Assembly: GCF_032444005.1 (NCBI RefSeq)
Contig: NC_091283.1
Location: 384,772,001-384,836,000, forward strand
Origin: Ranitomeya imitator
Lineage: Eukaryota
Length of the DNA: 64,000 nt
Reading direction: 5' to 3'
The notes beneath the pieces were generated by a model. The model worked only from the letters and a program-made list of their open reading frames with translations. It was not told the DNA's origin and ran no database searches. This document shows, piece by piece, positions 36,620 to 64,000 of the stretch (position 1 is its first letter; each line of letters opens with the position of its first letter). A program made the position numbers and the translations under genes.

Positions 36620-36755
36620 GTACTGGAGGCCCAAAGTACTAATGCTTCTCAATAGAGGGAAAAGAGAAGTTCTGAGACCATTTTTTTTTCTCTGCACTGT
36701 GTTTTGTCTTTCTTTTTCCCTAGACATTTGGGTGGTTCAGGACACAGGTGTAGTG

Positions 36756-37931
36756 ATGGACATTAAAGGTCTGTCTTCTTGTGTGGATCATCTCACTGCA
36801 AGAGTACAAAATATTCAAGACTTTGTGGTTCAGAATTCTATGTTAGAACCAAGAATTCCTATTCCTGATTTGTTTTCTGGAGATAGAGCTAAGTTTCTGA
36901 GTTTTAAAAATAATTGCAAACTGTTTCTGGCTTTGAAACCCCGCTCCTCTGGTGACCCAGTACAACAAGTTAAGATCATTATTTCTTTATTACGTGGCGA
37001 CCCTCAAGATTGGGCATTTTCCCTTGCGCCAGGAGATCCTGCATTATGTAATATTGATGCGTTTTTTCTGGCGCTCGGATTGCTTTATGATGAACCTAAT
37101 TCAGTGGATCAGGCAGAGAAAAATTTGCTGGCTCTGTGTCAGGGTCAGGATGAGGTAGATATATATTGTCAGAAGTTTAGGAAGTGGTCTGTGCTCACTC
37201 AATGGAATGAATGTGCGCTGGAAGCAATTTTCAGAAAGGGTCTCTCTGAAGCCCTTAAGGATGTCATGGTGGGATTTCCTATGCCTGCTGGTCTGAATGA
37301 GTCTATGTCTTTGGCCATTCAGATCGATCGACGCTTGCGTGAGCGTAAAACTGTGCACCATTTGGCGGTATTACCTGAGCATAAACCTGAGCCTATGCAA
37401 TGTGATAGGACTTTGACCAGAGCTGAACGGCAAGAACACAGATGTCGGAATGGGCTGTGTTTTTACTGTGGTGATTCCACTCATGCTATCTCCGATTGTC
37501 CTAAGCGCACTAAGCGGTTCGCTAGGTCTGCCACCATTGGTACGGTACAGTCGAAATTTCTTTTGTCCGTTACTTTGATCTGCTCTTTGTCATCCTATTC
37601 GGTCATGGCATTTGTGGATTCAGGCGCTGCCCTGAATTTGATGGACTTGGAGTTTGCTAGGCGCTGTGGGTTTTTCTTGGAGCCCTTGCAGTATCCTATT
37701 TCATTGAGAGGAATTGATGCTACGCCTTTGGCCAAGAATAAGCCTCAATTCTGGACCCAGCTGACCATGTGCATGGCTCCTGCGCATCAGGAGGATATTC
37801 GCTTTTTGGTGTTGCATAATCTGCATGATGTGGTCGTGTTGGGGTTGCCATGGCTACAAGTCCATAACCCAGTATTGGATTGGAAATCAATGTCTGTGTC
37901 CAGCTGGGGTTGTCAGAGGGGAACATGGTGA
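36756..37931 (+). CDS. gag: Gypsy gag-protease ORF
   Basis: Retrotransposon gag (PDLFSGDR..FL..C, LLRG.PQDW), zinc knuckle CFYCGDSTHAISDC, aspartic protease AFVDSGA. Open from MDIKG. Confidence 0.88.
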   Translation: MDIKGLSSCVDHLTARVQNIQDFVVQNSMLEPRIPIPDLFSGDRAKFLSFKNNCKLFLALKPRSSGDPVQQVKIIISLLRGDPQDWAFSLAPGDPALCNIDAFFLALGLLYDEPNSVDQAEKNLLALCQGQDEVDIYCQKFRKWSVLTQWNECALEAIFRKGLSEALKDVMVGFPMPAGLNESMSLAIQIDRRLRERKTVHHLAVLPEHKPEPMQCDRTLTRAERQEHRCRNGLCFYCGDSTHAISDCPKRTKRFARSATIGTVQSKFLLSVTLICSLSSYSVMAFVDSGAALNLMDLEFARRCGFFLEPLQYPISLRGIDATPLAKNKPQFWTQLTMCMAPAHQEDIRFLVLHNLHDVVVLGLPWLQVHNPVLDWKSMSVSSWGCQRGTW

Positions 37932-40762
37932 TGTTCCATTTCTGTCTATTTCGTCATCCGCCCCTTCTGAGGTCCCAGAGTTCTTGTCGGATTACCGGGA
38001 TGTATTTGATGAGCCCAAGTCCAGGGCCCTACCTCCGCATAGGGATTGCGATTGTGCTATCGATTTGATTCCTGGTAGTAAGTTTCCCAAGGGTCGACTG
38101 TTTAATTTGTCTGTGCCTGAGCACGCTGCTATGCGGAGTTACGTAAAGGAATCCTTGGAGAAGGGTCATATTCGCCCGTCGTCGTCGCCATTGGGAGCAG
38201 GGTTCTTTTTTGTGGCCAAGAAGGATGGTTCGCTGAGACCTTGTATTGATTACCGCCTTCTAAATAAAATCACAGTCAAATTTCAGTACCCCTTGCCGCT
38301 GCTGTCTGATTTGTTTGCTCGGATTAAGGGGGCTAGTTGGTTCACCAAGATAGATCTTCGTGGTGCGTATAATCTTGTGCGTATTAAACAGGGCGATGAA
38401 TGGAAAACAGCATTTAATACGAACGAGGGCCATTTTGAGTACCTGGTTATGCCATTCGGGCTTTCTAATGCTCCATCAGTATTTCAATCCTTTATGCATG
38501 ACATCTTCCGAGAGTACCTGGATAAATTCCTGATTGTATACTTGGATGATATTTTGGTCTTCTCGGATGATTGGGAGTCTCACGTGAGGCAGGTTAGAAT
38601 GGTGTTCCAGGTCCTGCGTGCGAATTCTTTGTATGTGAAGGGGTCAAATTGTCTCTTTGGTGTTCAGAAGGTTTCATTTTTGGGTTTCATTTTTTCCCCT
38701 TCTACTATCGAGATGGACCCTGTTAAGGTCCAGGCCATTTATGATTGGACTCAGCCGACATCTCTGAAGAGTCTGCAAAAGTTCCTGGGCTTTGCTAATT
38801 TTTATCGTCGCTTCATCAATAATTTTTCTAGTATTGCTAAACCGTTGACTGATTTAACCAAGAAGGGTGCTGATGTGGTCAATTGGTCTTCTGCTGCTGT
38901 GGAAGCTTTTCAGGAGTTGAAACGTCGTTTTTCTTCTGCCCCTGTATTGTGCCAACCGGATGTTTCGCTCCCGTTCCAGGTCGAGGTTGATGCTTCTGAG
39001 ATTGGAGCAGGGGCTGTTTTGTCGCAATGAAGTTCTGATTCCTCGGTGATGAAGCCATGTGCCTTCTTTTCCAGGAAGTTTTCGCCTGCTGAGCTTAATT
39101 ATGATGTTGGCAATAGAGAGATGCTGGCCATGAAGTGGGCATTCGAGGAGTGGCGTCATTGGCTTGAAGTAGCTAAGCATCGCGTGGTGGTCTTGACTGA
39201 TCACAAGAACTTGACTTATCTTGAGTCTGCCAAACGGTTGAATCCTAGACAGGCTCATTGGTCGCTGTTTTTCTCCCGTTTTGACTTTGTGGTTTCGTAC
39301 CTTCCGGGCTCTAAAAATGTGAAGGCGGATGCCCTGTCTAGGAGTTTTGTGCCCGACTCTCCGGGTTTGCCCGAGCCGGTGGGTATTCTCAAAGAGGGGG
39401 TAATTTTGTCTGCCATCTTCCCTGATTTGCGGCGGGTGTTGCAAAAATTTCAGGCTAATAGACCTGACCGTTGCCCAGCGGAGAAACTGTTTGTCCCTGA
39501 TAAATGGACGAGTAGAGTTATCTCTGAGGTTCATTGTTCGGTGTTGGCTGGTCATCCTGGAATCTTTGATACCAGAGATTTGGTGGCTAGATCCTTTTGG
39601 TGGCCGTCTCTGTCACGGGATGTGCGTTCGTTTGTGCAGTCCTGTGGGATTTGTGCTCGGGCTAAGCCCTGCTGTTCTCGTGCCAGTGGGTTGCTTTTGC
39701 CCTTGCCGGTCCCAAAGAGGCCCTGGACACATATCTCTATGGATTTTATTTCGGATCTCCCCATCTCTCAAAAGATGTCGGTCATTTGGGTGGTTTGTGA
39801 TCGCTTCTCTAAGATGGTCCATTTGGTACCCTTGTCTAAATTGCCCTCCTACTCTGATTTGGTGCCATTGTTTTTCCAGCATGTGGTTCGTTTACATAGC
39901 ATTCCGGAGAACATCGTTTCTGACAGAGGTTCCCAGTTTGTTTCGAGGTTTTGGCGAGCCTTTTGTGCTAGGATGGGCATTGATTTGTCTTTTTCCTTGG
40001 TTTTCCATCCTCAGACAAATGGCCAAACCGAACGAACCAGTTTCTGCTGATCAGGATGATTGGGTGTCCTTTTTGCCGTTGGCTGAGTTCGCCCTTAATA
40101 ATCGGGCCAGCTCGGCTACTCTGGTTTCGCCGTTTTTCTGCAATTCTGGTTTCCATCCTCGTTTCTCTTCAGGGCAGTTTGAGTCTTCAGACTGTCCTGG
40201 TGTGGATACTGTGGTGGATAGGTTGCAACAGATTTGGACTCATGTAGTGGACAATTTGACATTGTCCCAGGAGAAGGCTCAACGTTTCGCTAACCGCAGG
40301 CGCAGTGTGGGTCCCCGACTTCGTGTTGGGGATTTGGTTTGGTTGTCGTCTCGTTATATTCCTATGAAAGTTTCCTCTCCTAAGTTTAAGCCTCGTTTCA
40401 TTGGTCCGTATAGGATTTCTGAGGTTCTTAATCCTGCGTCTTTTCGTTTGACCCTTCCAGCTTCCTTTTCCATCCATAATGTATTCCATAGGTCATTGTT
40501 GCGGAGATACGTGGCACCTGTGGTTCCATCTGTTGATCCTCCTGCCCCGGTTTTGGTTGAGGGGGAGTTGGAGTATATAGTGGAGAAGATTTTGGATTCT
40601 CGCATTTCGAGACGGAAACTCCAGTACCTGGTTAAGTGGAAGGGTTATGGTCAGGAAGATAATTCCTGGGTATTTGCCTCTGATGTTCATGCTGCCGATC
40701 TGGTTCGTGCCTTTCATTTGGCTCATCCTGGTTGGCCGGGGGGTCTGGTGAGGGTTCGGTGA
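37825..40762 (+). pseudogene. pol: Gypsy pol: RT, RNase H, integrase, chromodomain; one stop near 39028 and a frameshifting deletion near 40040
   Basis: LRPCIDYR, KIDLRGAY, MPFGL.NAP, VYLDDILV, DASEIG, TDHKNL, HHCC zinc finger, MDFI, SDRGSQF, HPQTNGQTER, YIVEKILDSR...YLVKWKGY..EDNSW. Confidence 0.93.
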
Positions 40763-40785
40763 CCCCTCCTCAAGGGGGGGGGTAC

Positions 40786-41605
40786 TGTTGTGAATTCTGT
40801 GGTCAAGCTCCCTCCTGTGGTCATGAGTGGTACTTCGGCTGGTTCTGTCTATGAGCTTCCTCTGGTGGATGTGAGTGGGGCTGCGGCTTCTGAGTTCCCT
40901 TCCTCAGGTGACGAGGTTAAGTCGTTAGGTGCTGCTCTATTTAACTCCACCTAGTTCTTTGTTCCTGGCCTCCAGTCAATGTTCCAGTATTGGTCTTGCT
41001 CTCTCCTGGATCGTCTTGTGGCCTGTCTGCCCTGCATAAACTAAGTTCTGCTTGTGCTACTTTTGTTTGCTATTTTTTCTGTCCAGCTTGCTATATTGGT
41101 TTTTCTTGCTTGCTCGAAGCTCTGGGACGCAGAGGGAGCACCTCCGTGCCGTTAGTCGGTACGGAGGGTCTTTTTGCGCCCTCTGCGTGGTTGTTTGTAG
41201 GTTTTTGTGCTGACCGCAAAGCTATCTTTACTATCCTCGGTCTATTCAGTAAGTCGGGCCTCACTTTGCTAAAACCTATTTCATCTCTGTGTTTGTATTT
41301 TCATCTTTACTCACAGTCATTATATGTGGGGGGCTGCCTTTTCCTTTGGGGAATTTCTCTGAGGCAAGGTAGGCTTATTTTTCTATCTTCAGGGCTAGCT
41401 AGTTTCTCAGGCTGTGCCCGAGGCGCCTAGGTCTGATCAGGAGCGCTCCACGGCTACCTCTAGTGTGGTGTGATAGGATTAGGGATTGCGGTCAGCAGAG
41501 TTCCCACGTCTCAGAGCTCGTCCTATGTTATTAGTAACTATCAGGTCACTTTGTGTGCTCTTAACCACCAGGTCCATTGTGTTTCTGAATCACCAGTTCA
41601 TAACA
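40786..41605 (+). repeat. 3' LTR of the Gypsy element
   Basis: Follows the polypurine tract; 820-bp copy of the 5' LTR. Confidence 0.95.
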
Positions 41606-46345: not shown

Positions 46346-47510
46346 AGGCACATGACCAAGACACTTAATATACAAATTAAGGGGGCACCACGGTCAGTGG
46401 GATACACACCAAGAGCTATGGGGTAACCAATATTAGAACACAAAGAAGCAGAATAGGTCATATAAATAGGGATCACCACACATTTGGATATGGCAAAAGT
46501 TAAACACAGCTTTATTTAGGTACATCAACAGACAATAACAAGGCACTAACATTTAAAAACATTTAAAACAGGGGCATGTTTCTCAGTCGCCCATGACAGC
46601 ATTACCAGAGAGAGGGAATCCGCCCTTCAGGGACAGGAAACCTACAGGATAAAAAGGGCGGTACCTCTCTCCTGCGTCAGTTTGGTTTCCTGTCCCTGAC
46701 AGGGAACCCTCTAGGATCGGTACCTGGAGATCCGGAGCCGACCAGTCGACCTATGACGGCGGGGAGGCCCCTGTCACGGCTGGCGCGGTGTCCGACGCTG
46801 CCCCTTCTGGGTCCGATGGGGCTGCAGAGTGCGTGGAGGGAAGCGCGGCCGCCTCCCCGGATTGGGGCAGGGGCTTCAGGGACCCGGTGTGCCTCAGCGC
46901 CATGCAGAGGCACTTCCTGATTCGGAGCGGCGGCACGGTGTGTGTGAGAGCACCAAGATGGCCGCCGCACCGGATATAGATACGACTACTTCCGGGTCCC
47001 GGGCAGAGCGCGCATGCGCAGTTGAATCAAGGGGATCAGCGCTTCCCTGGAACGCAGCCCTGGAGGAGGTGGTGAATCGGTGCCAAAAGTATAGCTATTT
47101 AAAAACCGCTGTGGAGTCGCTCTTTGCTGCATGCAGTCCTAATAATGGAGGACAGTGATCAGCAGCTCCAGCCGGCGCAGCCCTTACAGCAGCAGCGTCA
47201 CCACCAGGGCAAGCCAGATGCGCAAAAATAAAGGTCCTCTGCAGGCACCCGCAGTACCCGCTCCAGCAGCCATTCCACGCCGCAGAGTAAAGCCTCCAAT
47301 ATGGCTAACCAGCCGACACCATCTACTTCGGATCTCATACAGGATCCTATACCTCCTCCAGAACCGGTACCTGTGGCTGCGCAAGATGGGTGAGTGATCG
47401 TCGTGAAAGGTCACCAAATAATTGGGGTCCTCTTTTCCGTTTGTTTTTAGGCAAGAAAAAGAACGGAGAAAACTAAGCATAGAGCCTGCCCCTTATGCAG
47501 AGAACCCCTG

Positions 47511-49080
47511 TTGCAAAACTGGGATAAGAAATTGAGCGGTTCCTGTATAGGACAAGTCCTTTGTGGTGAAGAAACCCTTAGTTTCGCCTCTGAATTACGA
47601 TCTGTAATAAGATCAGAGGTAGAAACAGCATTTAAATCCCTTAAAGGGGAAGGGGTTAAGGAGAAAACACCTGTACCCTATTCTCACTCCGATTCTTCTA
47701 GTTCTGAGGGGGATGCTTCAGACAGACAGGGTTCCTCCTCCTCCTCGGATTCTGAGAGTGGAGGCCGCCACTGCTTCCCCTTAGACGAAGTAGATGCCCT
47801 TGTGAAGGCCGTAAGATCGACCATGGGGGTCCTAGATCTACGTCCTGACAAAACAGTACAAGACACTATGTTTGGAGGCCTGGGCCAGAAAAGGCGTAGA
47901 GTCTTTCCACTTAATGAAAATGTTCAAGCCTTAATTAAAAAGGAGTGGGAGAGACCAGAAAGAAAAAATTCATCCGTGCCCTCCCTTAAAAGGAAATATC
48001 CCTTTGAAGAAGAGGCTTCTACGTCATGGGACAAGGCCCCTAAAGTTGGCGTAGCAGTAGCCAAAGTGTCAAAAAAATTTGCATTGCCCTTTGAGGACAT
48101 GGGAACTCTGAAAGATCCCCTCGATAAAAGAGCCGATACCTTCCTTAAAGGGGCCTGGGAATCGGCAGGGGGATGTTTAAGGCCTGCAATAGCAGCCGTG
48201 TGTACTTCCAGATCTTTAATGATTCGGATAGATAACTTAGAAATACAACTAAAGGTACCGTCACACATAACGATATCGTTAACGATATCGTTGCTTTTTG
48301 TGACGTAGCAACGATATCGTTAAGGAAATCGTTATGTGTGACAGCGACCAACGATCAGGCCCCTGCTGGGAGATCGTTGGTCGCTGAGGAAAGTCCAGAA
48401 CTTTATTTCGTCGCTGGACTTCCCGCTGACATCACTGGATCGGCGTGTGTGACACCGATCCAGCGATGTCTTCACCGGTAACCAGGGTAAACATCAGGTT
48501 ACTAAGCGCAGGGCCGCGCTTAGTAACCCGATGTTTACCCTGGTTACCAGCGTAAACGTTAAAAAAACAAACACTACATACTTACCTTCAGCTGTCTGTC
48601 CCCGGCGCTGTGCTTCTCTGCACTCCTCCTGCATCCTGTGTCAGCGCCAGCCAGCCGGAAAGCACAGCGGTGACGTCACCGCTCTGCTTTACGGCTGACC
48701 GGCGCTGACAGTGCAGAGGAAAGCAGAGCGCCGGGGACAGACAGCTGAAGGTAAGTATGTAGTGTTTGTTTTTTTAACGTATACGCTGGTAACCAGGGTA
48801 AACATCGGGTTACTAAGCGCGGCCTTAGTAACCCGATGTTTACCCTGGTTACCGGGGACCTCGGGATCATTGGTCGCTGGAGAGCTGTCTGTGTGACAGC
48901 TCTCCAGCGACCAAACAGCGACGCTGCAGCGATCGACATCGTTGTTGGTATCGCTGCAGCGTCGCTTAGTGTGACGGTACCTTAAGAGACGTGGTATCCA
49001 GACATAAAATGATTGAATCAATTCCCATGATTAGAGGGGCGGCAGCCTTTTTGGCAGACTCGTCAGCCGATTCAATCTAA
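47511..49080 (+). pseudogene. gag: DIRS gag-like ORF interrupted by a Harbinger MITE
   Basis: FPLNENVQALIKKEWERP, W..APKV.VAVAK, LKDPLDKR; the frame rejoins across the MITE as LEIQLRDVVSRHKMIESIP..AAAFLADSSADSI*. Confidence 0.75.
48253..48982. mobile_element. PIF/Harbinger-type MITE (family A, second copy)
   Basis: AGGTACCGTCACAC...GTGTGACGGTACCT; TAA duplicated at 48250-48252 and 48983-48985; homologous throughout to 1706-2429. Confidence 0.82.
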
Positions 49081-49200
49081 CTTACTTCAAAATCGGCAGC
49101 CTTATCTAATGCAGCTCGTAGGACGCTATGGCTAAAAAGTTGGCCGGGCGACCTACAGACTAAACAAAACCTTTGTTCAATCCCATGTGAGGGGAAATTT

Positions 49201-50923
49201 TTGTTTGGGGAAACCCTCGATGACATTTTACAAAAAGCCGGGGATAAGAAGAAGGGGTTCCCTAACCTGGCAACACCATTTGTTAAGCGGCCCTTTCGGA
49301 GTAGGAAGTTTTTCCGGAGACGTCCCCCAAGGGAACAGAACAGATGGGATGATGGGAGAATGAAACTAAACAGTTATGTAAAAAATCAGACCTTCAAAAT
49401 AGAATCAATAAAATCAACAATCAAAAACCTGTTTCCGAATTGCTTCATGATAGTACGCGTCGCTGAGATCCAACACTATCACGTCCCCATCCACAAAAAC
49501 ACCCAGAAATGCCTCAGACTAGTGGTAGTCATGGGAGGAGAAATAAAACAATACCAGTACAAGGCCCTTCCATTTGGCATTTCAGTAGCACCCCGTATAT
49601 TTACCAAATTGGTAGCGGAAATGATGGCCCACATAAGAGAAAAAGACATTCTAATTATACCATATCTGGACGACTTTCTAATTGTCAGCAACTCAGCCCA
49701 ACACTGTCGCCAACAATGCGACAGAGTAATAAAAATTCTAACGGAGTTAGGTTGGCTCCTAAATCAACAAAAGTCAAAACTGGAACCGACCAGGGTTCAA
49801 GAGTTTTTGGGCCTAACTTTGGACTCGATAACACAGGAATGTCGTCTTCCAGACCAGAAAAAAACGAAAATATCAAATCTTGTGTCCAGAGCTCGCTCAA
49901 ACCCTCATATGACCCTGAGAGGGCCGATGTCACTGCTGGGGTCCCTTTCTGCTTGTCTCCCAGCAACACAGTGGGCACAATTTCACACGAGGGACCTCCA
50001 GTGGGATTTTCTGAGGAATCAGGTTACACTGGGGGGACACCTAGAAGGACACATGACTCTAAATTCAAACACTATTCGTTCCCTAGCCTGGTGGTTAGAT
50101 TCCAACAACCTATCAAAGGGGGTTCCGTGGGTAATAGACATATCTCGGATAGTTACCACGGATGCCAGTCCCACAGGTTGGGGAGCTCACCTGGACAACA
50201 GTATCACTCAGGGAGTCTGGACAGATCAAGAATACGAGGTATCCTCAAATCAAAAAGAACTTTGGGCAGTGAGCCACGCTCTATCATTTTCTCTTCCCAG
50301 CCTGCAGGGGCATCATGTCCGGGTTTTTTCGGACAATCAGGTAGTGGTAGCCTACCTGAACCATCAGGGGGGGACCAGATCCCAAACCCTAATGAAGGCC
50401 ACTTCCCAGATCTTCACCTTAGCAGAAGACAACTTCCTATCCCTCTCTGCGCTACATATAAAGGGGGTAGAGAACCAAAAAGCAGACTTCTTAAGCCGTA
50501 TCTGGTTAAAACAGGGGGATTGGGCGCTGAACCAAAGCATCTTCGATCGGATCACCAAAATCTGGGGGGTCCCTGTAATAGACCTCGTTGCCAGTGCAGA
50601 AAACAGAAAAGTAAAGGAATTTTGTTCTCTGAACCCCAGAGGGGGCCCTCAGGCTCTGGATGCATTCACGATCCCCGGGTCTTGCATACGCTTTTCCCCC
50701 TCATATACTTATCCCAGCAGTTCTGCGGAAAATCAGACAGGACAGGGCGAAAATCATCCTAATAGCCCCCTTCTGGCCCAAAAGGGCCTGGTTTTCCTGG
50801 CTGAGAATCCCATCGGGCACCGATCCCTTGGTTCTTCCGGACCTCTTATCACAGGGACCGATGTTCCACCCTCAGTCAGCAAACCTCCACTTGACAGAGT
50901 GGAACTTGAGAGGTAACTACTAA
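49201..50923 (+). pseudogene. pol: DIRS RT-RNase H-methyltransferase-like ORF (5' RT apparently deleted; frameshift near 50675)
   Basis: YKALPFGISVAPRIFTK, PYLDDFLI, VTTDASPTGWGA, SNQKELWAV, VFSDN, HIKGVENQKADFLSR, IDL.AS..N.K, YAFPP. Confidence 0.9.
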
Positions 50924-51927
50924 GGGCAAGGGGCTTTTCAGATAATTTAGTGTCTACGCTATTAAAAAGTAGAAAAACTGTAACAACTAAAATCTACGGT
51001 AAGACCTGGAAAAAGTTTGTCCACCTCTGGGGTAAAACTACAAGATGGGGTCCCAGTGGTCAAAATATTAGAATTTCTACAGAAAGGCTTGGATATGGGC
51101 CTCTCGGTGAGCACCTTAAAAGTGCAAATAGCGGCTTTAGGTGCATTATACAGTGAGAATATTGCCACTAACCCATGGGTAACAAGGTTAAAGCTGCAAT
51201 ACGGTCTAAACCCTTAAAAATCGAAAGCCTTCCAACCTGGGACTTAAATTTAGTCTTATCAGCTCTGACAGAACCTCCGTTCGAGCCCATAGATTCGATA
51301 CCACTTAAAATCTTATCTCTCAAAACGTCCCTTCTCACAGCTTTGACATCTGCCCGTAGAATTAGTGACCTCCAGGCTCTATCTGCGAACCCTCCCTTCA
51401 CGCAAATCATGGATGATAGGGTAATACTAAAAACAGACCCCGCTTATCTACCCAAGGTTGCTTCCAATTTCCACAGGTCCCAGGAAATAATCCTTCCTTC
51501 CTTCTGCCCAAACCCTAAAAATAAAAAAGAGGAAAGGTTCCACACATTAGATGTGAGAAGGTCTTTAATATATTACTTAGAATCCTCCCGACAGTATAGG
51601 AAGGAAGGGTCTCTCTTTATCTGTTTTCAGGGACCTAGGAAAGGACTCAAAGCCTCCAAAAGCACTATAGCTCGCTGGGTAACTGATGCGATAGCCTTGG
51701 CATACTCATCCACGGGAAATGCAGTTCCTGAGGGGCTCAAGGCGCACTCTACAAGAGCTATGGCGACCTCCTGGGCCGAAAGGTCGGAGGTACCAATAGA
51801 CAAAATCTGTGAGGTGGCCACCTGGTCATCACCTTCAACCTTCTTTAGGCACTACCACTTAGAGCGGGCCTCTTCGTCTGACTTAACCTTCGAAAGAAGG
51901 GTCTTGCAGGCTGTGGTCCCTCCCTAA
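50920..51927 (+). pseudogene. DIRS tyrosine recombinase (frameshifted N-terminal half)
   Basis: WDLNLVL, LTSARRISDLQAL, AHSTRAMATSWA, ATWSSPSTFFRHY (R..H..R..Y tetrad). Confidence 0.9.
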
Positions 51928-51946
51928 AGCAATAATCTCTGTAATT

Positions 51947-52029
51947 CTCTCTGGTAGTGCTGTCATGGGCGACTGAGAATAGAGTAGTTACTTACCAATA
52001 ACGGTATTTCTCAGAGCCCATGACAGCAC
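51947..52029 (+). other. DIRS internal complementary region (ICR)
   Basis: First half is the reverse complement of the left terminus (tttctcagtcgcccatgacagc); second half is the reverse complement of the right terminus (gtgctgtcatgggctctgagaaataccgttatcggtaagtaactactctatt). Confidence 0.9.
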
Positions 52030-52880
52030 CTGCTTATTCCCCCCCCCTGTCACGTGTGTGGTGAGCACCTTATTATATGAACTGTGTGTTTCTAATTGAG
52101 ACACGGTGTAATCCTGATAAGTATTTTGTTAAAATTGTATATTTTCCTGTTGTCATTAACCTGGAGGACCTCTGATGCTCTGTAAACCAAACTGACGCAG
52201 GAGAGAGGTACCGCCCTTTTTATCCTGTAGGTTTCCTGTCCCTGAAGGGTGGATTCCCTCTCTCTAGTAGTGCTGTCATGGGCTCTGAGAAATACCGTTA
52301 TCGGTAAGTAACTACTCTATTATGCCCCAACCATATAAGCCCCTAATAAGGCTACAACCCACATTTGACTCCTAGTTACAATAGAAAAATGACATGCGGT
52401 AAGGTACCTATATAAACAGCATTGCCCCAGTATAATAAAAATACCTTAATACATATAAAGCAGCCCATTAACCTGTAAATCCAATAAAGTTTTTAGAGCC
52501 TTGAAGATATAATGATCCTCTGGCAAAGCTACCCTGTCAGTGGTTATAAATAGTGCAATAGCAAACTCTCAGATAGTGAGGGGAACAAAGACATGATAAT
52601 ATAAGATACCACTAATAAATAGGCAGAATTGCTACCTTGAGCTGAACAATGACGTATAGTATACAGTATATATTCACCAACGCACCCCAATAGGTGTGTA
52701 GTAATGATCCCTTAAAACATATAACGCAGCCCATGAACCTAAGATTACAATAAAGGTTTGAAGCCTAGAGGATATGGTAATCCTCTGGCAGAAGAGACTT
52801 GCCAGTGACTACTCAAAATGCAATAGCAGACCCTTATATAGTAGGAGAAGCAGAAGCTAGATATTGCAAGATAACACTAA

Positions 52881-53600
52881 AGTAGTAAGAGCACCCCCCT
52901 CTCGTCAAAACGCCCACTTCCGGCTTCTGACAGGTTCCCCGCTCCTTTTTGACACCTTTTAGCACTAACCCCGCTCCACTTCTGGTCTTAACCCCTCCCC
53001 TCTCCTCCCCATTTGCCACCCACTCTCCGCCCCTCTGTGTGTCACTATCCGTGACGTCAGTTCCGTGCCCGCCCCGGAAGCCGCCCTGAGCCTTCGCGGG
53101 CAGGGTCCTCATTCCTCCTGTACCAGTTATGACTTGTATTGTTTAAGATTATTGTACTTGTTTTCATTATGTATACCCCTCCTCACATGTAAAGCACCAT
53201 GGAACAAATGGCGCTATAACAATAAATAATAATAATAACCTGTTACTTCAGTTCCGTCCCCGCCCCGGAAGCCGCCCTGTTCAGTCTCTGTTATGTCCCC
53301 CATGACCGCCCATTCGCCGCCCATCTTGTGGGCTTATGAAGCATTCCTTGATAGATGGAGAGGCCAAGTCCGCCCCACTTCCTGTCTAAACCACTCCAGT
53401 GTGTAAGATTGGGTTTATGTAGTAGTTCCTGATAGGTGGAGAGACCAAGTCCTCCCCACATCCTGTCTAGACCTCTCCAGTGTGTAAGATAGGGCTTATG
53501 TGTCGTTTCTTGATAGGGCTTATGTGTCGTTTCTTGGAGAGACCAAGTCCGCCCCACCTCCTGTCTAAACCTTTCCAGCGTAAGAATAAACATGTCTTGA
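52881..53600. promoter_or_regulatory. Maverick terminal (TIR-like) region with GC boxes, ETS-type CCGGAAG sites, a CRE (TGACGTCA at 53052-53059) and ~76-bp repeats
   Basis: Motifs read directly. TIR status is inferred from the AGTAGT terminus; the partner end is not in the window. Confidence 0.5.
53087..53238 (+). mobile_element. L2 3' tail fragment
   Basis: gagccttcgcgggcagggtcctc...tgtaaagcaccatggaacaaatggcgctataacaataaataataataataa; similar to the 4884-5044 tail. Confidence 0.72.
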
Positions 53601-54065
53601 CATGTTTTGTGTGAGAAGACAGTCCCAGGGTTAATGACAGCTGTCTGTAGAGTTCATAGCCCTCCAGGTTGTGTAGGAAAACTTGTCAAGACGTGTTTTG
53701 TGAGAGAAGTCTCAGGATCCTGCGACGGTTGTAGCTTTCATAATAATGATGTGATAAAATACATTTATTGTAGCATCACGTTGAGGTATACCCAAATCAA
53801 GAAATGAAAAAGGCGCAAATAGATCTAAAAATACAGCGTTATACACACAATCCTATAGGTTCCAATACAGGCATTTCAAAGCTAACATTTAAAGAAATGA
53901 AAAAGGGGCTTCGTGTAATAATTCCAGAGTCGTTCAACCAGTTTTTAGCTAAAAGACGCTAAACAAGCTTATTGTAGCTTCACGTAGAGGTATACACAAA
54001 TCAAGAAATGAAAAAGGTGTAAATAGATCTAAAAAATACAGCGATATACAAAACATGCCTATAGG

Positions 54066-54628
54066 TTACAATACAGTCATTTCAAATTTAACATTTACAA
54101 AGTTAACCACGCGCTTGGCGACAGTGGCGAGATTCTCTACAATCAAAACAAGATTTTCAACAAGGTCCAACAAATGGGTGCTGGGAACGACGGAACCTTT
54201 GTAGACAAATTCACCTTTCTCAGTCCATGTAACAATATCTTTGTGTTGCAAGAAGCTGCTGAGTAGTATTTCGGCATTTTTTCGGAAACGGGGGTTGATG
54301 TGTTCTATAAGCTCGGGGGCAGAGGGTCGTATCACTATTTCGGCCACTGGTGATGGTGATTGTTCACCATCAGGAGGGGTCACAAGATTTAAACGCGTAA
54401 GTTCAGAAACGTCACGTTTAGCGTGCAGCAAACTTCGCTGTAGTATTTCGGTGTACCTTTTAATCTTTACATCGTCAGGCAAATCAGTATGTCGTAGAAT
54501 GGCGCCGATTTTGTCGTCTAACCTTTGGAGGGTCATCTGACGTACGGTAGGCCCAGACGCACCGATGTTTTTTAGTCTGTTAATCTCACGCGCAGGAACA
54601 TGTACATTTTCTCTGCATGTTCAATCAT
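54066..54628 (-). pseudogene. Conserved Maverick ORF of unknown function (MIEHAEKMYM-frameshift-VPAREINRL...RLDDKIGAILRHTDLPDDVKIKRY...); 3' end probably fused to the deletion junction
   Basis: ATG overlaps the upstream stop (ATGA at 54628-54625); a 1-bp deletion separates it from ORF 54066-54536; syntenic after the ATPase. Confidence 0.55.
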
Positions 54629-54954
54629 CTACCGGTTATTAAACTCATTATTAGCGGTATAGCAATAGCTAGAAGCGGCCCTATGAAACCTCCAGACTGA
54701 TTCAGCAGATGTTTTTTTCTCCGAATGGACACTTTTTTGTCACTCAGATTTCTTATAGCTCTACGCCATTTCTGTAATATTTTTCTTTGGCGCTCTTTGA
54801 GAGGAAGCCGGCCTTTCAGAATATTGAGAGCTATTTCCGCGATGGCAGCTATTAAATCTCTGCCGGCGGTCTTCAGAATAAACTTTCTCTCCGACGAGGA
54901 TGCTTTCATCAGCTTTTTCAAGAGTCCCCAGTTACGCCTCACTCTCTCAGACAT
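54625..54954 (-). CDS. Small basic Maverick protein with C-terminal NQSGG|FIGPLLAIAIPLIMSLI hydrophobic tail
   Basis: Open 109-aa ORF from MSERVRRN, K/R-rich, directly downstream of the ATPase. Confidence 0.65.
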   Translation of the reverse strand: MSERVRRNWGLLKKLMKASSSERKFILKTAGRDLIAAIAEIALNILKGRLPLKERQRKILQKWRRAIRNLSDKKVSIRRKKHLLNQSGGFIGPLLAIAIPLIMSLITGR

Positions 54955-55002
54955 GTTGATAGAATGAAGGTTACGGGGCTGAATAATCACCGCAGAGAAA
55001 AT

Positions 55003-55668
55003 TCACTTTTTAGAATGAATTTTTTCTTTTTGAACGTACGCTGCGGGTAAAGCTGGTGGAAACAGCCCCGTTCTTAAACGATATTCCTTGGGCGTATCAC
55101 CTCTCAAATCTACGAGCAAGAATCCGTAAGGCTCTCGCGTAGCATCTTCGAAAGCTTCTAAGAAGAAACGTGAGTTCCTCGGGTACATCTGCCGGGCCAG
55201 CGTGACAATTTGTATTTTATCGCGTGGGTTCTTAAATAGAACCATGTACTTGGTATTCAAGGTGATGGTTCTACTCTTTTTCCTCTGACAAAAAACATTT
55301 TGAGCCAAATAGAATAGGCTCAAGCTTCTATGATGAACGTACTTAGTAAACGCTTTTTCCAGTTCTGAATTACAGCTAGCGGCCTCCATGAAATCGTCCA
55401 CCACCGCCAAGTTGATCTTGTCAGGCGGGAAGAGTTCATCATCTACAAACGTCTGCGGCAAACCTTCGATAAAACGAATACTGGGGAAGGAATGACTCAG
55501 TTCATCATACATTTTTTGCCAGCAAGAATAAAACCAAACAATATTATCGGGTTTGTGAGATAAATGTCTCGTCGCGTGAGCTAAAATCTGTTTGACAAAA
55601 TAGGATTTTCCAGAGTTAGAAGGGCCCGCTAGAATGCACGAGAAGGGGTGCTGTAACCGGGGGTCCAT
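55003..55668 (-). CDS. A32/FtsK-HerA-like DNA packaging ATPase
   Basis: MDPRLQHPFSCILAGPSNSGKS (Walker A), LAVVDD (Walker B), HHRSLS, LAQN, ITLNTKYMVLFKNPRD, PYGFLLVD. ORF is open. Confidence 0.92.
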   Translation of the reverse strand: MDPRLQHPFSCILAGPSNSGKSYFVKQILAHATRHLSHKPDNIVWFYSCWQKMYDELSHSFPSIRFIEGLPQTFVDDELFPPDKINLAVVDDFMEAASCNSELEKAFTKYVHHRSLSLFYLAQNVFCQRKKSRTITLNTKYMVLFKNPRDKIQIVTLARQMYPRNSRFFLEAFEDATREPYGFLLVDLRGDTPKEYRLRTGLFPPALPAAYVQKEKIHSKK

Positions 55669-55853
55669 GATGTTGAATGTTTGAGAACCGTGGCGTGGCT
55701 GTGTAAATTCCAGAGCACGTTTCTCTTTATACGTCACGGCTCTGTCTATAGCTACGCTTCGGGCGCTTGATGGTGCTGTAGTCTGTATCGTATTCTGCAC
55801 CTGTAGCGGAGATAAAGGGACATCAGTTGTTTGAAGAAAAGGGGAATTCAGCT

Positions 55854-58800
55854 CTAATAACCGTAGGGTAAAGAAGTAAAGTCATCAAACAACTGCCTCT
55901 TGGTATAGACGCAGTGTTGAGTTTTGCGTAAGGGGCGAGTTACAATGTCCCAGTACTTTTTGACCCGCACAATACCATTCTGCTCTACGACGAGCGTCTT
56001 TTCTTTTTCAGGAGCTGTAGAGGAAGTGTAAGCTAACACTAGATCTTTTAGACTCTCAAAATTGATAACACCGGCGTTAGCGATATTTAGGGTTATGCCT
56101 TTCACTTTCAAGACCGTGATACCCGTGTTTAATTTGTAGCCGTAAGTTTTCGGCCCGGCGGATGCAAATTCTGTGATGTGACTCCCCGGAGGTATTTTGC
56201 TGGTGAGTTCACCCAGGTAGTCTCCTAAGGGCGGCTGCCACTCGCCGTCACGACTTACAAAAATGACAGAGTCCGTGTCGTGGTAAAGACACCGCTCTTG
56301 CAATTTGTCTAGAAGTGTGTACAATTCTAAGCGCGCATAAGTTGTTGTGAAGCATGCAATGAAAATGTTGGTGTTTTTGTTGGCTGTGCGGTGTTCTTTT
56401 GTGTATTTCCAATTGACAGTCACCGTATCGTCGCTGATAAAGTTTAACTCTGAAACCTCATAGTACGGGAGAAAGGCGTACTCAAAGAGTTCATCGGCGC
56501 TGTTCACGATGCTGGTGGTAGGTAGGTTAGAGCGCTGCGCAAACTTACCCCATAAAGAGTTTAAGAATAGTTTAGCGATTTGTCTTTTAGCTGAATTTGG
56601 CTCTATATGATCGGGGTTTAACTTTATACCTTCTTTTTCAAGATAGGCGTCTACATAGTCTTTTTTCATGGTATCGTCTGTGCACCACGCGGGGTAACCC
56701 GTGGCTTCCTGTTTGTGTCTAAGATGTAAATCGATGTATTGCGCAAATAGATCGGTCGCCGTCTCCTCAAAATGCCACACCTCGTAAATGTGTGCTAGCC
56801 TGTAACCCTTCTCCACCGCCATTTCTAACTCTATCGTGCACCACGTACCTGTCAGTGCCCTCTCTTCCTCCGAATGAGCGCAGGGAGCCGCTTCTGAATG
56901 CAAAGCGCATGTGTGACAGAGGGGAAAGATCAATTTTTTGTTCATTTTAACAGGGAGCACTGGGAAAAACAAATCCCTGGGAGGGTAGACTTTCACTTTG
57001 GCTATGCCAAAGTACTGCTGGATGTCCTACGGGGTACACTTTTGTTTTATTGACGTACAGGTATAAACTGGTGAAATCGTAGTACTCTATAGTTTCACCG
57101 GGTTCTTGTTTGTGATAGAGCTTGATGGCGTTAGTACGACCCCCGTACAGAGCGTTACGAGGCTCTAACGGTTCTGGGAAGTGCATGTGGCGCAGAAACG
57201 CTTGTAGGGCAGAGTTTTTTTTCAACCATCTCACGCCATTCGTGCTCCCACAATACGTGGACGGCGAACCCCTGTTGAAGTAAGAAATGTTTCTTCACTT
57301 CAAACATGCGATACAATTGCCCGTAAGTGGTCTTTGTGAGTTTGTTTGTGTCATTCTCGTTATAGCAAACGGGACAACCGTGGTAAAAACAACCCTGAAA
57401 TTCAAAAGCCGTGGGGCATCCGCTGACGAGCGTATAGCCATCTAGAAAAAAGTTTCCTACTCTTTTCTCACCGCTGTTCAAAGCGTGTTGCAGATCTAGG
57501 TTCTCTGTACGCGCTACGTACATTAACCATTGAATAGCGGGGGACGAGTAACGTTTGTGCTTTTTGTGATAATTATCCCCCGGCAAAATGGCTATTTTGT
57601 CTTCGGGGAGAAGTTTAAAGCGGTACATGGCCAAACAAACAGCTGCTAGCGTTGTGAGCTGAAACGGATCTATACTGATGAGTTTTTCAGTAAATTTATT
57701 TTCACGCTTACAGAATTGTATTTGTTTTTGGCCGTCATTTCCATGACGCGCTCGCGATACACAACGCAGGCGCGTCTCAAGACCTCTACGTCCTGTTGAC
57801 AGTAAGCTTTGAGCTCAGCTTGCAAATCAAACGTATTGTTTTTCACCGATTCGTACCACGTTGTAAATTCCTTTTTCTCACTATGCGTCATGTACTCTAC
57901 ACCATAATAGCTAGCAGCCGGTATAGGCCCTACATAGGTCTGATTTTCATCGGTGTTAAAAAAATGTGGAAAGTGCCCCTTAACACCTGAAAATCCCATA
58001 GCTTGCGGCAACTTACTGAGCTTCATGGTAATGAAATTTAAAGAGTCGATGAATCTCATGTCTAAATCTGGTAATGATACGCACAAAAGGCGACCGCCTT
58101 GTGCTATGATGTTAACGCGTAGCTTCTCATGGATCAGCTCTTAAATGATAAAGTAGGAATCGTATCGAGCCGCATTGTGAGCTATAAAAGTGTAGCCTAC
58201 ATATCCTCCCTTTGTAAAAAAAATGTACAAAATCGGTAGTACACCTTTTACCCTCAAACTACCGGCTAGATACACCGTGCAAATCCGTGGCAAAAACGTA
58301 ATTGGGCTGGTGAGTTCCCGTCTGTTGCGTACATTAAAAATCGTAAAAAATGTATCGTTTCGTAGATTACTTCGGCATATAGCGCTGCATATAACATAGA
58401 TGTCTATAGAATCTGTTCACCGGAACACCGCAAACGGTGCATCGTACACCGACGCATCGGTGTTCGTCATCCGCGGTTTGGGGGATGTAACGATAGCACC
58501 GCTCGCAGAAAAATTTAAGTTTCCAAAATGACCAGTCAGTCTCAGCGAGACTTCTGTGGAGTTCTAAGCAACTCGCCGAACGACAAAAAACTAGACAGCG
58601 GGGGCATCTCAACTGCTCCGCAACTGTATCAGCGCAATCCGCCCTCTGACACGTGGCGCAAAAGTATTGACAAGAGTGATTATTTTTGTGATGAAATGCG
58701 GAACTGCACTTTTCACAAAAGAATTTCGCTCCTATGAATCCTTTTATATTTTTTATTCCGTAATAATGTTTTTCATGATGCAGAATATACAATATTTTGT

Positions 58801-59491
58801 CTATGGGTTCTCTATCCGTGTGAAAATAGCGCCAGTCTCCCTGACTAAAGTATAGAACTTTAATGGTAACGTTCAAATACGTCTCAAACGCGCTAATGTC
58901 GCTAAAGCTCACTAGTTGATCGTCGGGTAGTTTCAAATTTCTGTGCAACTCTGCAGCACTTTTCATTAAATCAGTGTCAGGCGCGTCTTCTTCAGCCAGT
59001 AAGGCGTAGAGAAACGCTGCCAAACACTGATTAGAACCGTAATTGTTAAAATCAAACAACATTTGGCGTTTCTGATGAATAATTCTCGTGTAAACTATAG
59101 ATCTCAATCGTCTGTGTTTTGTACCTCCCCGTCTATTCCTCACGACGCTTACTATTACTTTCAAGCAGTCACCGGCGATGCACTCGGCGTTGCTTTGCAA
59201 TACGTTGCTCACAGCATTTAGGAAAGCAGTCGCGTCAAAATTATCTCTACATTGTTTAAAACCGTAGACTGGGTTTAGTCTACCGTCCCCTTCTAATCTT
59301 AATTGTATAAAGTCGCCCGGGTCAATATCCCTCATGATTCTATCCAGTAACGTTTGAATACAACCGTGTATGATCTCCAAACTTTTTTCAAAGGATTGTA
59401 TACGGTCTAAGTTCACAAATCTAAAATGGTCGATATACTGATAGGCGTTGAGGTTACTCATCTCCCTACGAATGTGAAATAAGTGTTCCAA
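55854..59491 (-). pseudogene. Protein-primed family B DNA polymerase (pPolB) with an N-terminal extension and an inserted Vsr-like nuclease segment; multiple frameshifts and stops
   Basis: Exo YIFYDF*CTQ, FIAHNAARYD, FIDSLNF, KGHFPHFFN, YCQQDV; LDGY..AFEFQGCFYHGCP; LYGGRTN, YYDFTSLY, KLFLNSLWGKFAQR, YHDTDSVIF, GPKTYGY, KVKGITL. Confidence 0.93.
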
Positions 59492-60608
59492 AAACGGCGA
59501 ATGCTCGCCTATGGCCGGTGTATGAGGCGGTGAAAACTGTGACGCCGCTCCTTGGCTGTAGGTGTCTCCGCCGCTGAATTCTGCAGAGCGTCTGGGAATT
59601 GCGAATCTATCGAGGATTCGCGATCTGACGCCTCAGTGTCGGCGGTCGGTAAAACCTGAAGAGCTGTAGTATTCTGTGGGGATAGCGCTTGCGTAACGTG
59701 TGTTGAGTGAATAGCAGTGCGTTTTACCCTATTCTTGCGTTTTTTTCGCCTCTTTAACGTACGTTTAGCGTATGTTGTATTTTTAATACATCGTTTTATG
59801 ACTCGTGTTTTATTGAAAAAACCTTTACACGGGGGGGGGGGGGGGAGGTGCGTTTCATACCGCGACCTGTCATGCCTAGTCATAATGTACGAGCCCTCGG
59901 AATGGTTTTTAAATGCTTCAACAGCCTCAGTGTATAGAGGCTCTAAACCATTATTTTTGAAATGGACGCTCTATTCGGGCGCTGGGTGGACAGTTCTGTA
60001 CAGCGATCCAGCAGGTAAGCTAAATGATTGCGCGCATTGATAAGTGTCATGGTATTACTGTATAAGTTGTCAAATACTCTTTTTACGTCTAGGGGCCATT
60101 GTTTGTACGCTGATATACAATCGTGAGTTTTCAGCTTTTTATGTTTTATTGGGCGTGTTGTGGAGTTACGCGGACGTTTCTGAACTTTAGGCTTTTGTGT
60201 TGTAGCTATAGTGTCATAAACCCGTAATACATATGGTTCGTTACTCGCTGGCCTACCTGAGGTTCCCGCACCGCTTGTTTCAGAATCGTGGGATGTTGAG
60301 GTTCCTGCATTTAGATTGAATGAAGCGAGCCGTTTGCGGCTTTTCGCTCTGAGAGTGTCGGAGGGTTTACTTCTGTATGGTGAGTGGATTGATTCCACAG
60401 ACGGCACAGCGGCGGCCAGTGGTCAAATTCCTTTTTTTCAAAAATAGTTCTGAAGGGTTGTCTGCGCGCTGTCTTTCTCGGAGCGTCTGCGTAAGAAAAT
60501 GGAGAGCTCGTTATTAATATACTACGCATCCTGCGTAAGAAAATGGAGAGCTCGTAATTAATCTACGACGCATCCTAACAAATTAGGAAAGTGATAGTAA
60601 ACATTTAC

Positions 60609-61577
60609 ACGGCAGGTTGGTAGGTCTCCAGAGCGATTGGGTGGGTGATGAATAAGACGTTGACGCATTGTATATTTTTCTTCTGATTTTTCTTTGGTTC
60701 TTGTACCGTTGTCGCCCGGTGATGTATTTTCTTTGTCTTTTGTTTCATCGTCTGATCCTGTCAAATCGATGATGGTCTCTGAAATAAATAACCGATTATT
60801 TACCACACGTCTGCACGCTCAATTGCAGTGCACAGCGCCATTTGTGGTTGAAACTACCTTCAGTAGAGGCTGTCGGGAACGTAGGGCTCCAGGTATCCCA
60901 TTCTGGAAGTGAATATAGCGGCTGTACCGCACAAGCTTCATCGTCACTGGTGGTGACGGCCGTAGAGGCTGTCGGGAACGTAGGGCTCAAGGTATCCCCT
61001 TCTGTGAGTGAATATAGCGGCTGTACCACACAAGCTTCACCGTCGCTGGTGGTGACGGCCGGCAGGTCATCGTCAGAGCCTGTACAGTCTATGAAACTCT
61101 CTGAAATAGACAGACGTCAAATTACGGCAAAACTGCACAAAGTAATGTAGAGTACAAAGAGTTTTTTGTTACCGGACTTACCATACATAGGTGGGTTGTT
61201 ATGAGGACCTTTGGCTAGCGTGGAATTGTCCTGGCACCACTCGGCCATCACTTCAGCCTCCAATTGCTGCAGTTCGGTCAACAGCTCCTGTGAGACGGGG
61301 TATTGCGATGCTTCCGCTAACTCTGAATTAACATGACGGGCCCCAGAGACCGTTTCCCGTTGCATTTCAGCCATCAGACACTGTGGAGCTGCGTGGCATT
61401 CCTCTACCATATCCGCGTCTAGGAACATAGCTTTTAAAATAAAATTAAAGCGTGTTTGGTATCCTCCACCGTACTATAACTACATTTTCACGCATTCCCT
61501 CTAAAACTTTGCTTACTTAGCTGGCTGTCCGTGAGCCGCTCTTCGTCGTCGACGTGATCGTTAAAACTAGGGTTCAT
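60609..61577 (-). CDS. Predicted spliced acidic accessory gene of the Maverick: exons 61577-61517, 61430-61182, 61100-60858, 60778-~60609; 3' continuation uncertain
   Basis: Three GT-AG phase-1 introns (86, 81 and 79 nt) join the pieces in frame: MNPSFNDHVDDEERLTDSQL-T-MFLDAD...NNPPMY-E-SFIDCTGSDDD...PTASTE-E-TIIDLTGSDDETKDKE... Confidence 0.65.
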
Positions 61578-62304
61578 CTGTAACAAATGCATAACGTCAC
61601 ATAGTATATAGCTACAAAATAGACGCATAAACTATAAAATACTTACACTAATAATTAAAAATAATAGTCAAGCCGCAATAATGGTGACAATCAGACATTC
61701 AACATAACGTCACGCAGTATATAGCGACAAAATAGGCACATAAACTATAAAATACTTACAATAATTAGATTTAAAAATAATAGTCAAGCGGCAATAATGG
61801 TGACAATCAGACATTCAACATTAAATAAACATTTTACAGCCCGTGATACGCGAACAGAAACTCACATTGACGGTCTTCAATATCTTGTCAACTCTTCAGC
61901 CTGAGCGTTCTGTTTAACTGACTGATGCGCAATACATCGATTTACATCTTAGACACAATATAGCTAACGCCGGCGTTATCAATTTTGAGAGTCTAAAAGA
62001 TCTAGTGTTAGCTTACACTTCCTCTACAGCTCCTGAAAATGAAAAGACGCTCGTCGTAGAGCAGAATGGTATTCTGCGGGTCAAAAAGTACTGGGACATT
62101 GTAACTCGCACCTTACGCAAAACTCAACACTGCGTCTATACCAAGAGGCAGTTGTTTGATGACTTTACTTCTTTATCCTACGGTTATTAGAGCTGAATTC
62201 CCCTTTTCTTCAAACAACTGATGTCCCTTTATCTCCGCTACAGGTGCAGAATATGATACAGACTACAGCACCATCAAGCGCCCGAAGCGTAGCTATAGAC
62301 AGAG

Positions 62305-63101: not shown

Positions 63102-63185
63102 GCTATAGACAGAGTCGTTACGTAAAAACAGAAACGTGCTCTGGAATTTACACAGCCGTGCCACGGTTCTTAAACATTCAACATC

Positions 63186-63851
63186 ACGGACCCCCGGTTA
63201 CAGCACCCCTTCTCGTGCATTCTAGCGGGCCCTTCTAACTCTGGAAAATCCTATTTTGTCAAACAGATTTTAGTTCACGCGACGACACATTTATCTCACA
63301 AACCCGATAATATTGTTTGGTTTTATTCTTGCTGGCAAAAAATGTACGATGAACTGAGTCATTCCTTCCCCAGTATTCGTTTTATCAAAGGTTTGCCGCA
63401 GACATTTGTAGATGATGAACTCTTCCCGCCTGACAAGATCAACTTGGCGGTGGTGGACGATCTCATGGAGGCCGCTAGCTGTAATTCAGAACTGGAAAAA
63501 GCGTTTACTAAGTACGTTCATCATAGAAGCTTGAGCCTATTCTATTTGGCTCAAAATGTTTATGGTCAGGGGAAAAAGAGTAGAACCATCACCTTGAATA
63601 CCAAGTACATGGTTCTATTTAAGAACCCACGCGATAAAATACAAATTGTCACGCTGGCCCGGCAGATGTACCCGAGGAACTCGCGTTTCTTCTTAGAAGT
63701 TTTCGAAGATGCTACACGAGAGCCTTACGGATTCTTGCTTGTAGATTTGAGAGGTGATACGCCCGAGGAATATCGTTTAAGAACGGATCTGTTTCCACCA
63801 GCTTTACCCACAGCGTATATTCAAAAAGAAAAAATTCATTCTAAAAAGTGA
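63186..63851 (+). pseudogene. Second copy of the packaging ATPase (start ATG mutated to ACG, otherwise open)
   Basis: (T)DPRLQHPFSCILAGPSNSGKS...; 10 differences over the 169 aligned C-terminal residues versus the first copy. Confidence 0.88.
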
Positions 63852-64000
63852 ATTTTCTCTGCGGTGATTATTCAGCCCCGTAACCTTCATTCTATCAACA
63901 TGTCTGAGAGAGTGAGGTGTAACTGGGGACTCTTGAAAAAGCTGATGAAAGCATCCTCGTCGGAGAGAAAGTTTATTCTGAAGACCGCCGGCAGAGATTT

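Follow-up and report, generated by a model that had tools for sequence, protein, structure and literature searches.

A spliced gene between integrase and pPolB in dendrobatid frog Mavericks and its candidate readthrough junction with the polymerase

A decayed Maverick with a five-exon gene

The window analyzed here, a 64,000-nt stretch of the Ranitomeya imitator genome, contains a Maverick in decay, which occupies about 61925 to 52881 of the minus strand and has ACTACT at one element end near 52881. Its pPolB gene gave two DNA_pol_B_2 matches in Pfam (E 1e-10 and 2e-17) and is broken by several frameshifts and stops; downstream of it, on the same strand, lie an ATPase frame with weak Pfam matches only and two more frames. 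A DNA search of the genome returned 75 matches, from which 15 other places were taken and 14 were aligned, L044 being excluded because it matched over 208 bp only. In these other copies (family 1), the region lies between pPolB and an integrase-capsid-protease module on the opposite strand. Frames matching integrase and protease were found upstream of family-1 copies and are missing from the window copy, where homology to the other copies stops at 61925 and the upstream part with promoter, integrase and capsid module is absent. In L078, a copy from a second family, the rve integrase (PF00665) and the protease (PF00770, Peptidase_C5) scored above the Pfam cut-off, and the capsid frame had no Pfam match. 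The frames that we take to be the ATPase and capsid genes of the frog Maverick were assigned by position.

The element lies among other repeats. An inverted piece that carries the end of pPolB, then ATPase, PM and PZ, and also a second element end, occupies window 61957-62304 and 63102-64000 and continues into L046 (1-2013); it stands head to head with the window element, and the arms are 97-98% identical. Tandem copies of a 53-bp unit form a long array at about 16000-29450, in which the GC skew is strong. The segment at 35800-41430 has LTRs that are 99% alike, and its frames suggest a retrotransposon of the Ty3/gypsy class; that at 46580-52320, with reverse transcriptase and tyrosine-recombinase-like frames and inverted ends, is taken to be a DIRS-like element. 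A broken transposase with a BED-type finger, which we assume to be hAT-like, was located at 30496-34310. Downstream of the window, from position 6361 of L047, there is a frame of 487 aa with a C2H2 zinc-finger array.

Between the divergent integrase and pPolB genes of the frog Maverick lies a gene (window 61577-59880, minus strand; Table 1) which, in family 1, has its coding sequence split into five exons by four introns, all in phase 1. The initial annotation had proposed that three GT-AG introns, all in phase 1, join short open reading frames into one frame from an ATG directly behind an AG acceptor, and each of these points was borne out (introns 1-3, ATG at 61577). The fourth intron and the fifth exon of about 211 codons, which is open for its 211 codons in L032 and L045, had been missed. 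The expected product of about 240 aa belongs to the broken window copy only (about 240-280 aa, owing to private frameshifts in exons 4 and 5), and the family product is about 420 aa. Two further claims held in part. The 99-bp tandem repeat is present in exon 3 of the window copy but in none of the 13 other copies that cover the region. For the predicted 5'UTR intron, the acceptor before the ATG is kept, but the proposed donor at 61646 belongs to a tandem repeat of 113-116 bp and has an intact GTAAGT in only 6 of 13 rows. The donor at 61865, which in other copies follows a TATA-like box and a short leader exon, appears to be the better candidate. The window copy also has a shortened donor region in intron 4, as a private change. 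The acceptor region of this intron is tandemly repeated in both families (44 bp at window 60487-60574; 62 bp at L078 7101-7225). A possible zinc finger in exon 5 (CAVC) was rejected, as it lies in a frame reached only past the frameshift of the window copy.

Table 1 Features of the Maverick in the window
Feature	Positions	Strand	Evidence
Likely non-coding leader exon, 3' part	61866..61925	-	TATA-like box and GTGAGT donor in L034 and L040
Likely 5'UTR intron with 113-116-bp tandem repeats, GTAAGT in each	61578..61865	-	Acceptor in 12/12 rows, ATG in 11/12; same acceptor-ATG layout in family 2
Coding exon 1, 61 nt	61517..61577	-	Same start in RefSeq P0006
Intron 1, GT-AG, phase 1	61431..61516	-	GT 13/13, AG 12/13
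Coding exon 2, acidic, 249 nt (288 nt in one subfamily)	61182..61430	-	Copy alignment
Intron 2, GT-AG, phase 1	61101..61181	-	GT 13/13, AG 13/13; join in P0003-P0006
Coding exon 3, 243 nt (144 nt in the majority of other copies)	60858..61100	-	Copy alignment
First SIM-like motif, FIDCT then GSDDD	61081..61095	-	12/13 residues identical, P0006 vs P0004
99-bp tandem duplication, private to window copy	60863..61060	-	Repeat comparison and copy alignment
Intron 3, GT-AG, phase 1	60779..60857	-	GT 12/13, AG 11/13
Coding exon 4, frameshifted near 60666 in window copy	60609..60778	-	Copy alignment
Second SIM-like motif, IIDLT then GSDDE	60759..60773	-	13/13 residues identical, P0006 vs P0004
Intron 4, phase 1 in family; acceptor region duplicated in window copy	60487..60608	-	GT 12/12, AG 9/11
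Coding exon 5, encoding basic patches and a helical hairpin at the C-terminus; breaks near 60318 and 59948 in window copy	59880..60486	-	Open in L032 and L045; structure model
Internal splice donor in exon 5	60255..60256	-	Kept in families 1, 2 (15/16) and 4; used by RefSeq P0003, P0010 and P0012
Stop TGA then CTAG, type II readthrough context	59876..59882	-	11/12 family-1 rows; stop itself 59882-59880
M-T-G-R-G, fits adenovirus-protease consensus (M/I/L)xGx/G	59859..59873	-	Junction alignment
pPolB, frameshifted and with stops in window copy	55854..59879	-	DNA_pol_B_2
Acceptor just past pPolB	55801..55802	-	Joined to the 60256 donor in RefSeq P0003
ATPase, two more ORFs named PM and PZ from their position, element end with ACTACT	52881..55800	-	Frames; names from PMC8097293

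The conservation of the splice sites was assessed across the 14 other family-1 copies. The dinucleotides were intact in 95 of 101 copy-sites, compared to 1722 of 2139 (81%) for other GT/AG dinucleotides (Fisher p 2e-4, for copies that are related and not independent). The exon indels shared in family 1 were 39 and 12 nt long, and most of the shared intron indels (1, 2 and 44 nt) were not multiples of three. L031 was the sole one of these 14 copies open through the four joins, encoding 406 aa. On shared variants, omega was 0.63 (p 0.005), and 0.88 (p 0.33) when CpG sites were left out, with 0.46-0.47 for the pPolB control; the selection signal in the family-1 gene is thus weak. As had been suggested from the similar starts of exons 3 and 4, a duplication is plausible, the alignment of the intron ends and exon starts being better than all 2000 of 2000 shuffles.

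Homologues in RefSeq and in other Maverick families

Close relatives in RefSeq were from Ranitomeya and Phyllobates. XP_077110532.1 (P0006, 420 aa) has the same ATG, all four joins and the same end as the family-1 gene, and P0003, P0004 and P0005 carry joins 2-4. Between genera (P0006 vs P0004), the C-terminus, with 71 of 83 residues identical, and the two SIM-like stretches (Table 1) were more conserved than the flanks, with 19 of 34 and 23 of 46. Two other RefSeq models, P0011 and P0014, fuse gene pieces to other sequence, in P0014 to a transposase-like frame (PF13359/PF04827).

A pPolB search revealed a younger family 2, with 55-58% identity in 143 of 148 scored matches. As in family 1, the spacer of family 2 contains an acceptor-ATG arrangement, four phase-1 introns and a long last exon. 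Among 16 family-2 copies, chosen for long open pPolB frames, all splice sites were kept in 16 and the frame was open in 12, with exon indels of 9, 39 and 42 nt, and RefSeq P0008 is the 468-aa spliced reading of this family, letter for letter. P0013 from Phyllobates represents a third lineage, which matched both family 1 (E 8e-6) and family 2 (E 5e-32), the direct match between these two families being borderline (E 0.055). A search with P0013 led to a fourth family and many derivatives. The four Maverick lineages share a basic patch and the C-terminal helical hairpin, in which W, F, D, L, P and E are invariant across homologues, and the pPolBs of two of the four are about 57% identical. The full-length AlphaFold model had a mean pLDDT of 41, and the C-terminal model (pLDDT 73) was a two-helix hairpin. 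Profile searching had been recommended in the initial annotation. No known family or fold was found for the product in Pfam, the ESM Atlas or a PDB profile search, and Foldseek against BFVD and PDB gave 0 matches at E 0.001. Homologues outside dendrobatid frogs were not found, viral contigs gave no match, and a metagenome search yielded 2 weak matches of 27-31 residues.

Several copies have unusual arrangements. L098 (992-5080 and 5815-9901) is a palindromic non-autonomous derivative with arms of more than 4 kb at 99.95% identity, and L114 and L108 are similar; each arm contains the spliced gene and a protease tail, without pPolB. Many similar inverted pairs with an open last exon occur genome-wide. 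Family 2 is also abundant, with many open pPolB frames of 1326-1328 aa and 197 junction matches, far more than the tetrapod copy numbers given in PMC8097293.

It could be argued that the introns are unused and that gene finders over-read decayed sequence. Eight sequencing runs, none on record as RNA, contained no spliced joint, and contigs crossing the introns were unspliced, a result that says nothing about expression; the only joints in these runs were 99-bp and 31-bp differences between copies. That a single one of the 14 other family-1 copies is open through all joins points the same way. Against this explanation stand the conserved splice sites, the frame-keeping exon indels in two families and the identical RefSeq models, and we regard it as very improbable. 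Given the conservation among copies, the RefSeq models in two frog genera and the same layout in a second family, the hidden spliced gene first noted in the window is almost certainly real and part of the Maverick, as judged from sequence comparison.

The junction with pPolB

Behind the stop of the gene, pPolB was in frame in 9 of 12 family-1 rows. When the stop was left free in the search pattern, all 100 family-2 matches listed, of 197, had TGA followed by C (CTA in 89, CTG in 10 and CGG in 1), and TGA-CTA was found in all 16 family-4 places, with 0 matches for reversed-pattern controls. UGA-CUA is described as the type II viral readthrough signal (PMC3159437), and alone it gives 1.5% readthrough (PMC4132726). 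The frame by itself means little, because 4 of 7 other gene junctions in family 2 are in frame too, with starts 6-9 nt after the stop. The other junctions compared (MCP-protease and pPolB-ATPase) show no conservation from family 1 to family 2, and in several derivatives without pPolB the frame ends earlier, at TGA-TAA. Old family-3 copies are a poor fit to readthrough, having TAA-CTG in 2 of 3 places and no stop in the third, with Arg at the expected second Gly.

In families 1, 2 and 4, the codons behind the stop encode L-x-(M/L)-x-G-x-G. The adenovirus protease consensus is given as (M/I/L)xGx/G in PMC4246237, and within the first 598 residues of pPolB such a site occurs once, at position 3. 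In the old family-3 copies the sequence fits neither (M/I/L)xGx/G nor (M/I/L)xGG/x, whereas it fits in families 1, 2 and 4. At the Met position no codon other than ATG, CTG or TTG occurs, and position -3 is a purine, a fair context for initiation that would suit a start codon just as well; across 16 family-4 places it was CTG (11) or TTG (5) and never ATG. In family 4 the first Met was codon 89 in the three places with a long enough frame, and in three others a Met was located at 8, 23 or 31.

The initial annotation had considered that the spliced exons might serve as a leader for a pPolB without an obvious 5' ATG. In family 1, however, there is an in-frame ATG 7 nt after the stop. The leader proposal fails in its original form, as no acceptor is kept at the pPolB start, but its direction is right, since pPolB stands in frame behind a conserved stop of the leaky type. 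A stop-start overlap (ATGA) was rejected, the frame shift being due to indels in some copies. AATAAA was observed about 53 nt after the stop in 11 of 12 family-1 rows and is not kept in family 2.

We propose, with a probability of roughly one half, that the spliced gene encodes an early regulator, that ribosomes read through its stop into pPolB, and that the polymerase is then cleaved off. Ribosomes would mostly stop at TGA-CTA and release a regulator of 420-470 aa, predicted to be nuclear and with SUMO-binding-type motifs; low-rate readthrough would give a fusion with pPolB, and the adenovirus-type protease of the element would free pPolB at (M/L)xGx/G. For the parts of this proposal, the junction alignments tip slightly in favor of readthrough of TGA-CTA into pPolB, and cleavage at (M/L)xGx/G is a little more doubtful, somewhat short of an even chance.

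Alternatively, the same spliced regulator is made, and pPolB starts at its own codon 7 nt past the stop. This codon, ATG or, in family 4, CTG or TTG, would be reached by termination-reinitiation or on a separate mRNA, with MxGxG as a plain N-terminus. We consider this less probable than readthrough, yet a serious competitor. It would fit the favorable context of the ATG in families 1 and 2, its replacement by near-cognate codons only, and the tight stop-start junctions that are the rule in this element. The calicivirus-type reinitiation motif UGGGA was absent from the 110 nt upstream of the junction in three families, and an acceptor is not kept at the pPolB start, both of which speak against this alternative. 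An own start also gives no reason for the conservation of TGA-CT(A) across three families when the other junctions differ. No significant 3' stimulatory RNA structure was detected in four copies over 140 nt each (z -1.3 to +0.6), which agrees with an own start; such a structure is not required in every case of readthrough (PMC3159437).

Family-2 genes are packed stop-to-start (L078 1146-5302, minus strand; L142 3084-4141). The minor capsid, PW, major capsid and protease genes of this family stand in one frame with single stops between them, the first being TGA-CAC, and a protease-type site, MYGSG, was found at residue 37 of PW (L078 3009-3449, minus strand).

The RefSeq models also bear on the relation of the two genes. 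In addition to the join in P0003 (Table 1), P0010 and P0012 connect the internal donor of family 2 to an acceptor inside the ATPase frame. These predicted models imply transcripts that extend from the gene over pPolB, and isoforms from which both the hairpin and the polymerase are spliced out. Because the models splice from the last exon across pPolB, the gene and pPolB are likely to share one transcription unit.

Motifs, predicted role and comparison with known systems

A SUMO-interaction motif (SIM) consists of a hydrophobic core with an acidic flank. Both motifs that had been reported in the window copy, FIDCTGSDDD and IIDLTGSDDE, are present, and between P0006 and P0004 these stretches are better kept than the flanks. 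A core [VI][VI]D[VIL] with acidic neighbors, under a search pattern fixed after data inspection, occurs in families 1, 2 and 4 (IIDL, IIDV and EIIDV), whose N-terminal halves align poorly and yet have this core in common. It was found in 27 of 29 family-4 matches (22 of 23 distinct places). In shuffled proteins its chance was 2-5% per protein. The SIM reading gains some weight from an I-I-D-(L/V) core in 3 of 4 lineages but not from the homologue P0013, in which the core is absent. As stated in the initial annotation, there is no LxCxE, and this extends to P0006, P0004, P0008 and P0013, which also lack CR1 and paired CxxC. From these motifs we lean slightly towards a product that binds SUMO or Ubc9, and an early regulatory role has about even odds. 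In adenovirus E1A, EVIDLT binds Ubc9 and has an effect on PML bodies (PMC5030357), which makes Ubc9 no weaker a candidate than SUMO.

The gene could also be real but have been captured as cargo, in which case it would be unrelated to the expression of pPolB and its SIM-like motifs would have arisen by chance. Nematode Mavericks carry intron-bearing cargo according to bioRxiv 2022.07.12.499685, the homologues are confined to dendrobatid frogs in our searches, and SIM patterns are short, with P0013 lacking one. This explanation is improbable when set against the fixed position and conserved junction in four lineages, the splices that connect the gene to the ATPase region in RefSeq models, and the searches of Pfam, PDB, BFVD and the ESM Atlas, in which no host gene resembling the product was found. 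The nematode genes resemble ours in having introns inside a Maverick; they are variable and lie next to the TIR, whereas the frog gene is central, lineage-wide and abuts pPolB.

The element layout follows that of vertebrate Mavericks of the Rhinella marina type, in which pPolB-ATPase-PM-PZ opposes integrase-minor capsid-PW-major capsid-protease in divergent modules and the element ends in ACTACT (PMC8097293). The intact elements described there have no introns and the Rhinella marina layout no accessory region, whereas here a four-intron gene fills the spacer. The adintovirus 'Oncoid' genes (PMC8502044) are similar in that a protein with short linear motifs and CK2-type acidic sites is encoded upstream of PolB. 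Since the frog product has no LxCxE, CR1 or CxxC, it is not an Oncoid as defined there; the main text of that paper contains no word starting with 'splic' and none with 'SUMO'. In PMC5030357, adenovirus E1A is likewise a disordered, acidic first-gene product, and its CR2 EVIDLT is close to the frog TIIDLT. No sequence or fold similarity to E1A was found, and the frog gene is without an Rb-binding motif or a zinc finger.

Adenovirus E1A is spliced, as is the frog gene, but E1A is not joined to a polymerase. The junction, with UGA-CUA (CUG and CGG variants) in frame before a polymerase, is comparable to type II readthrough in alphavirus and plant-virus replicases and in vertebrate UGA-CUAG genes (PMC3159437 and PMC4132726). 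The viruses in question have RNA genomes and often a 3' stem-loop, which was not detected in the frog Maverick. Release of replication proteins by a protease, and the order TP-vOTU-polymerase, are shared with Polinton pPolB (bioRxiv 2024.03.18.585575) and with adenovirus pTP, which is cut by AVP (PMC4246237). The Polinton preprint proposes vOTU cleavage after TP, whereas an extra cut before TP is proposed here; its text contains neither 'readthrough' nor 'splic'. Taken as a whole, the region might be an adenovirus-like spliced unit with a SUMO-binding early regulator first, and the polymerase an alphavirus-style UGA-CUA readthrough polyprotein cut by the virion protease, a combined reading that we put forward only tentatively. 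No report of a spliced central gene or of readthrough at Maverick pPolB was found in the literature covered, mostly open-access main texts.

Vertebrate Mavericks have been described as intronless (PMC8097293). A conserved spliced gene, unnamed in RefSeq, is here the first gene of the replication module and encodes a candidate host-interaction protein. If readthrough takes place, a leaky stop would set the pPolB dosage, and pPolB annotations in these elements would begin at the wrong position. Should the alphavirus-style reading be true, replication would be tied to a leaky stop and a protease of the capsid module in a lineage of nuclear DNA viruses regarded as intronless, and splicing and the protease would form a link between Mavericks and adenoviruses.
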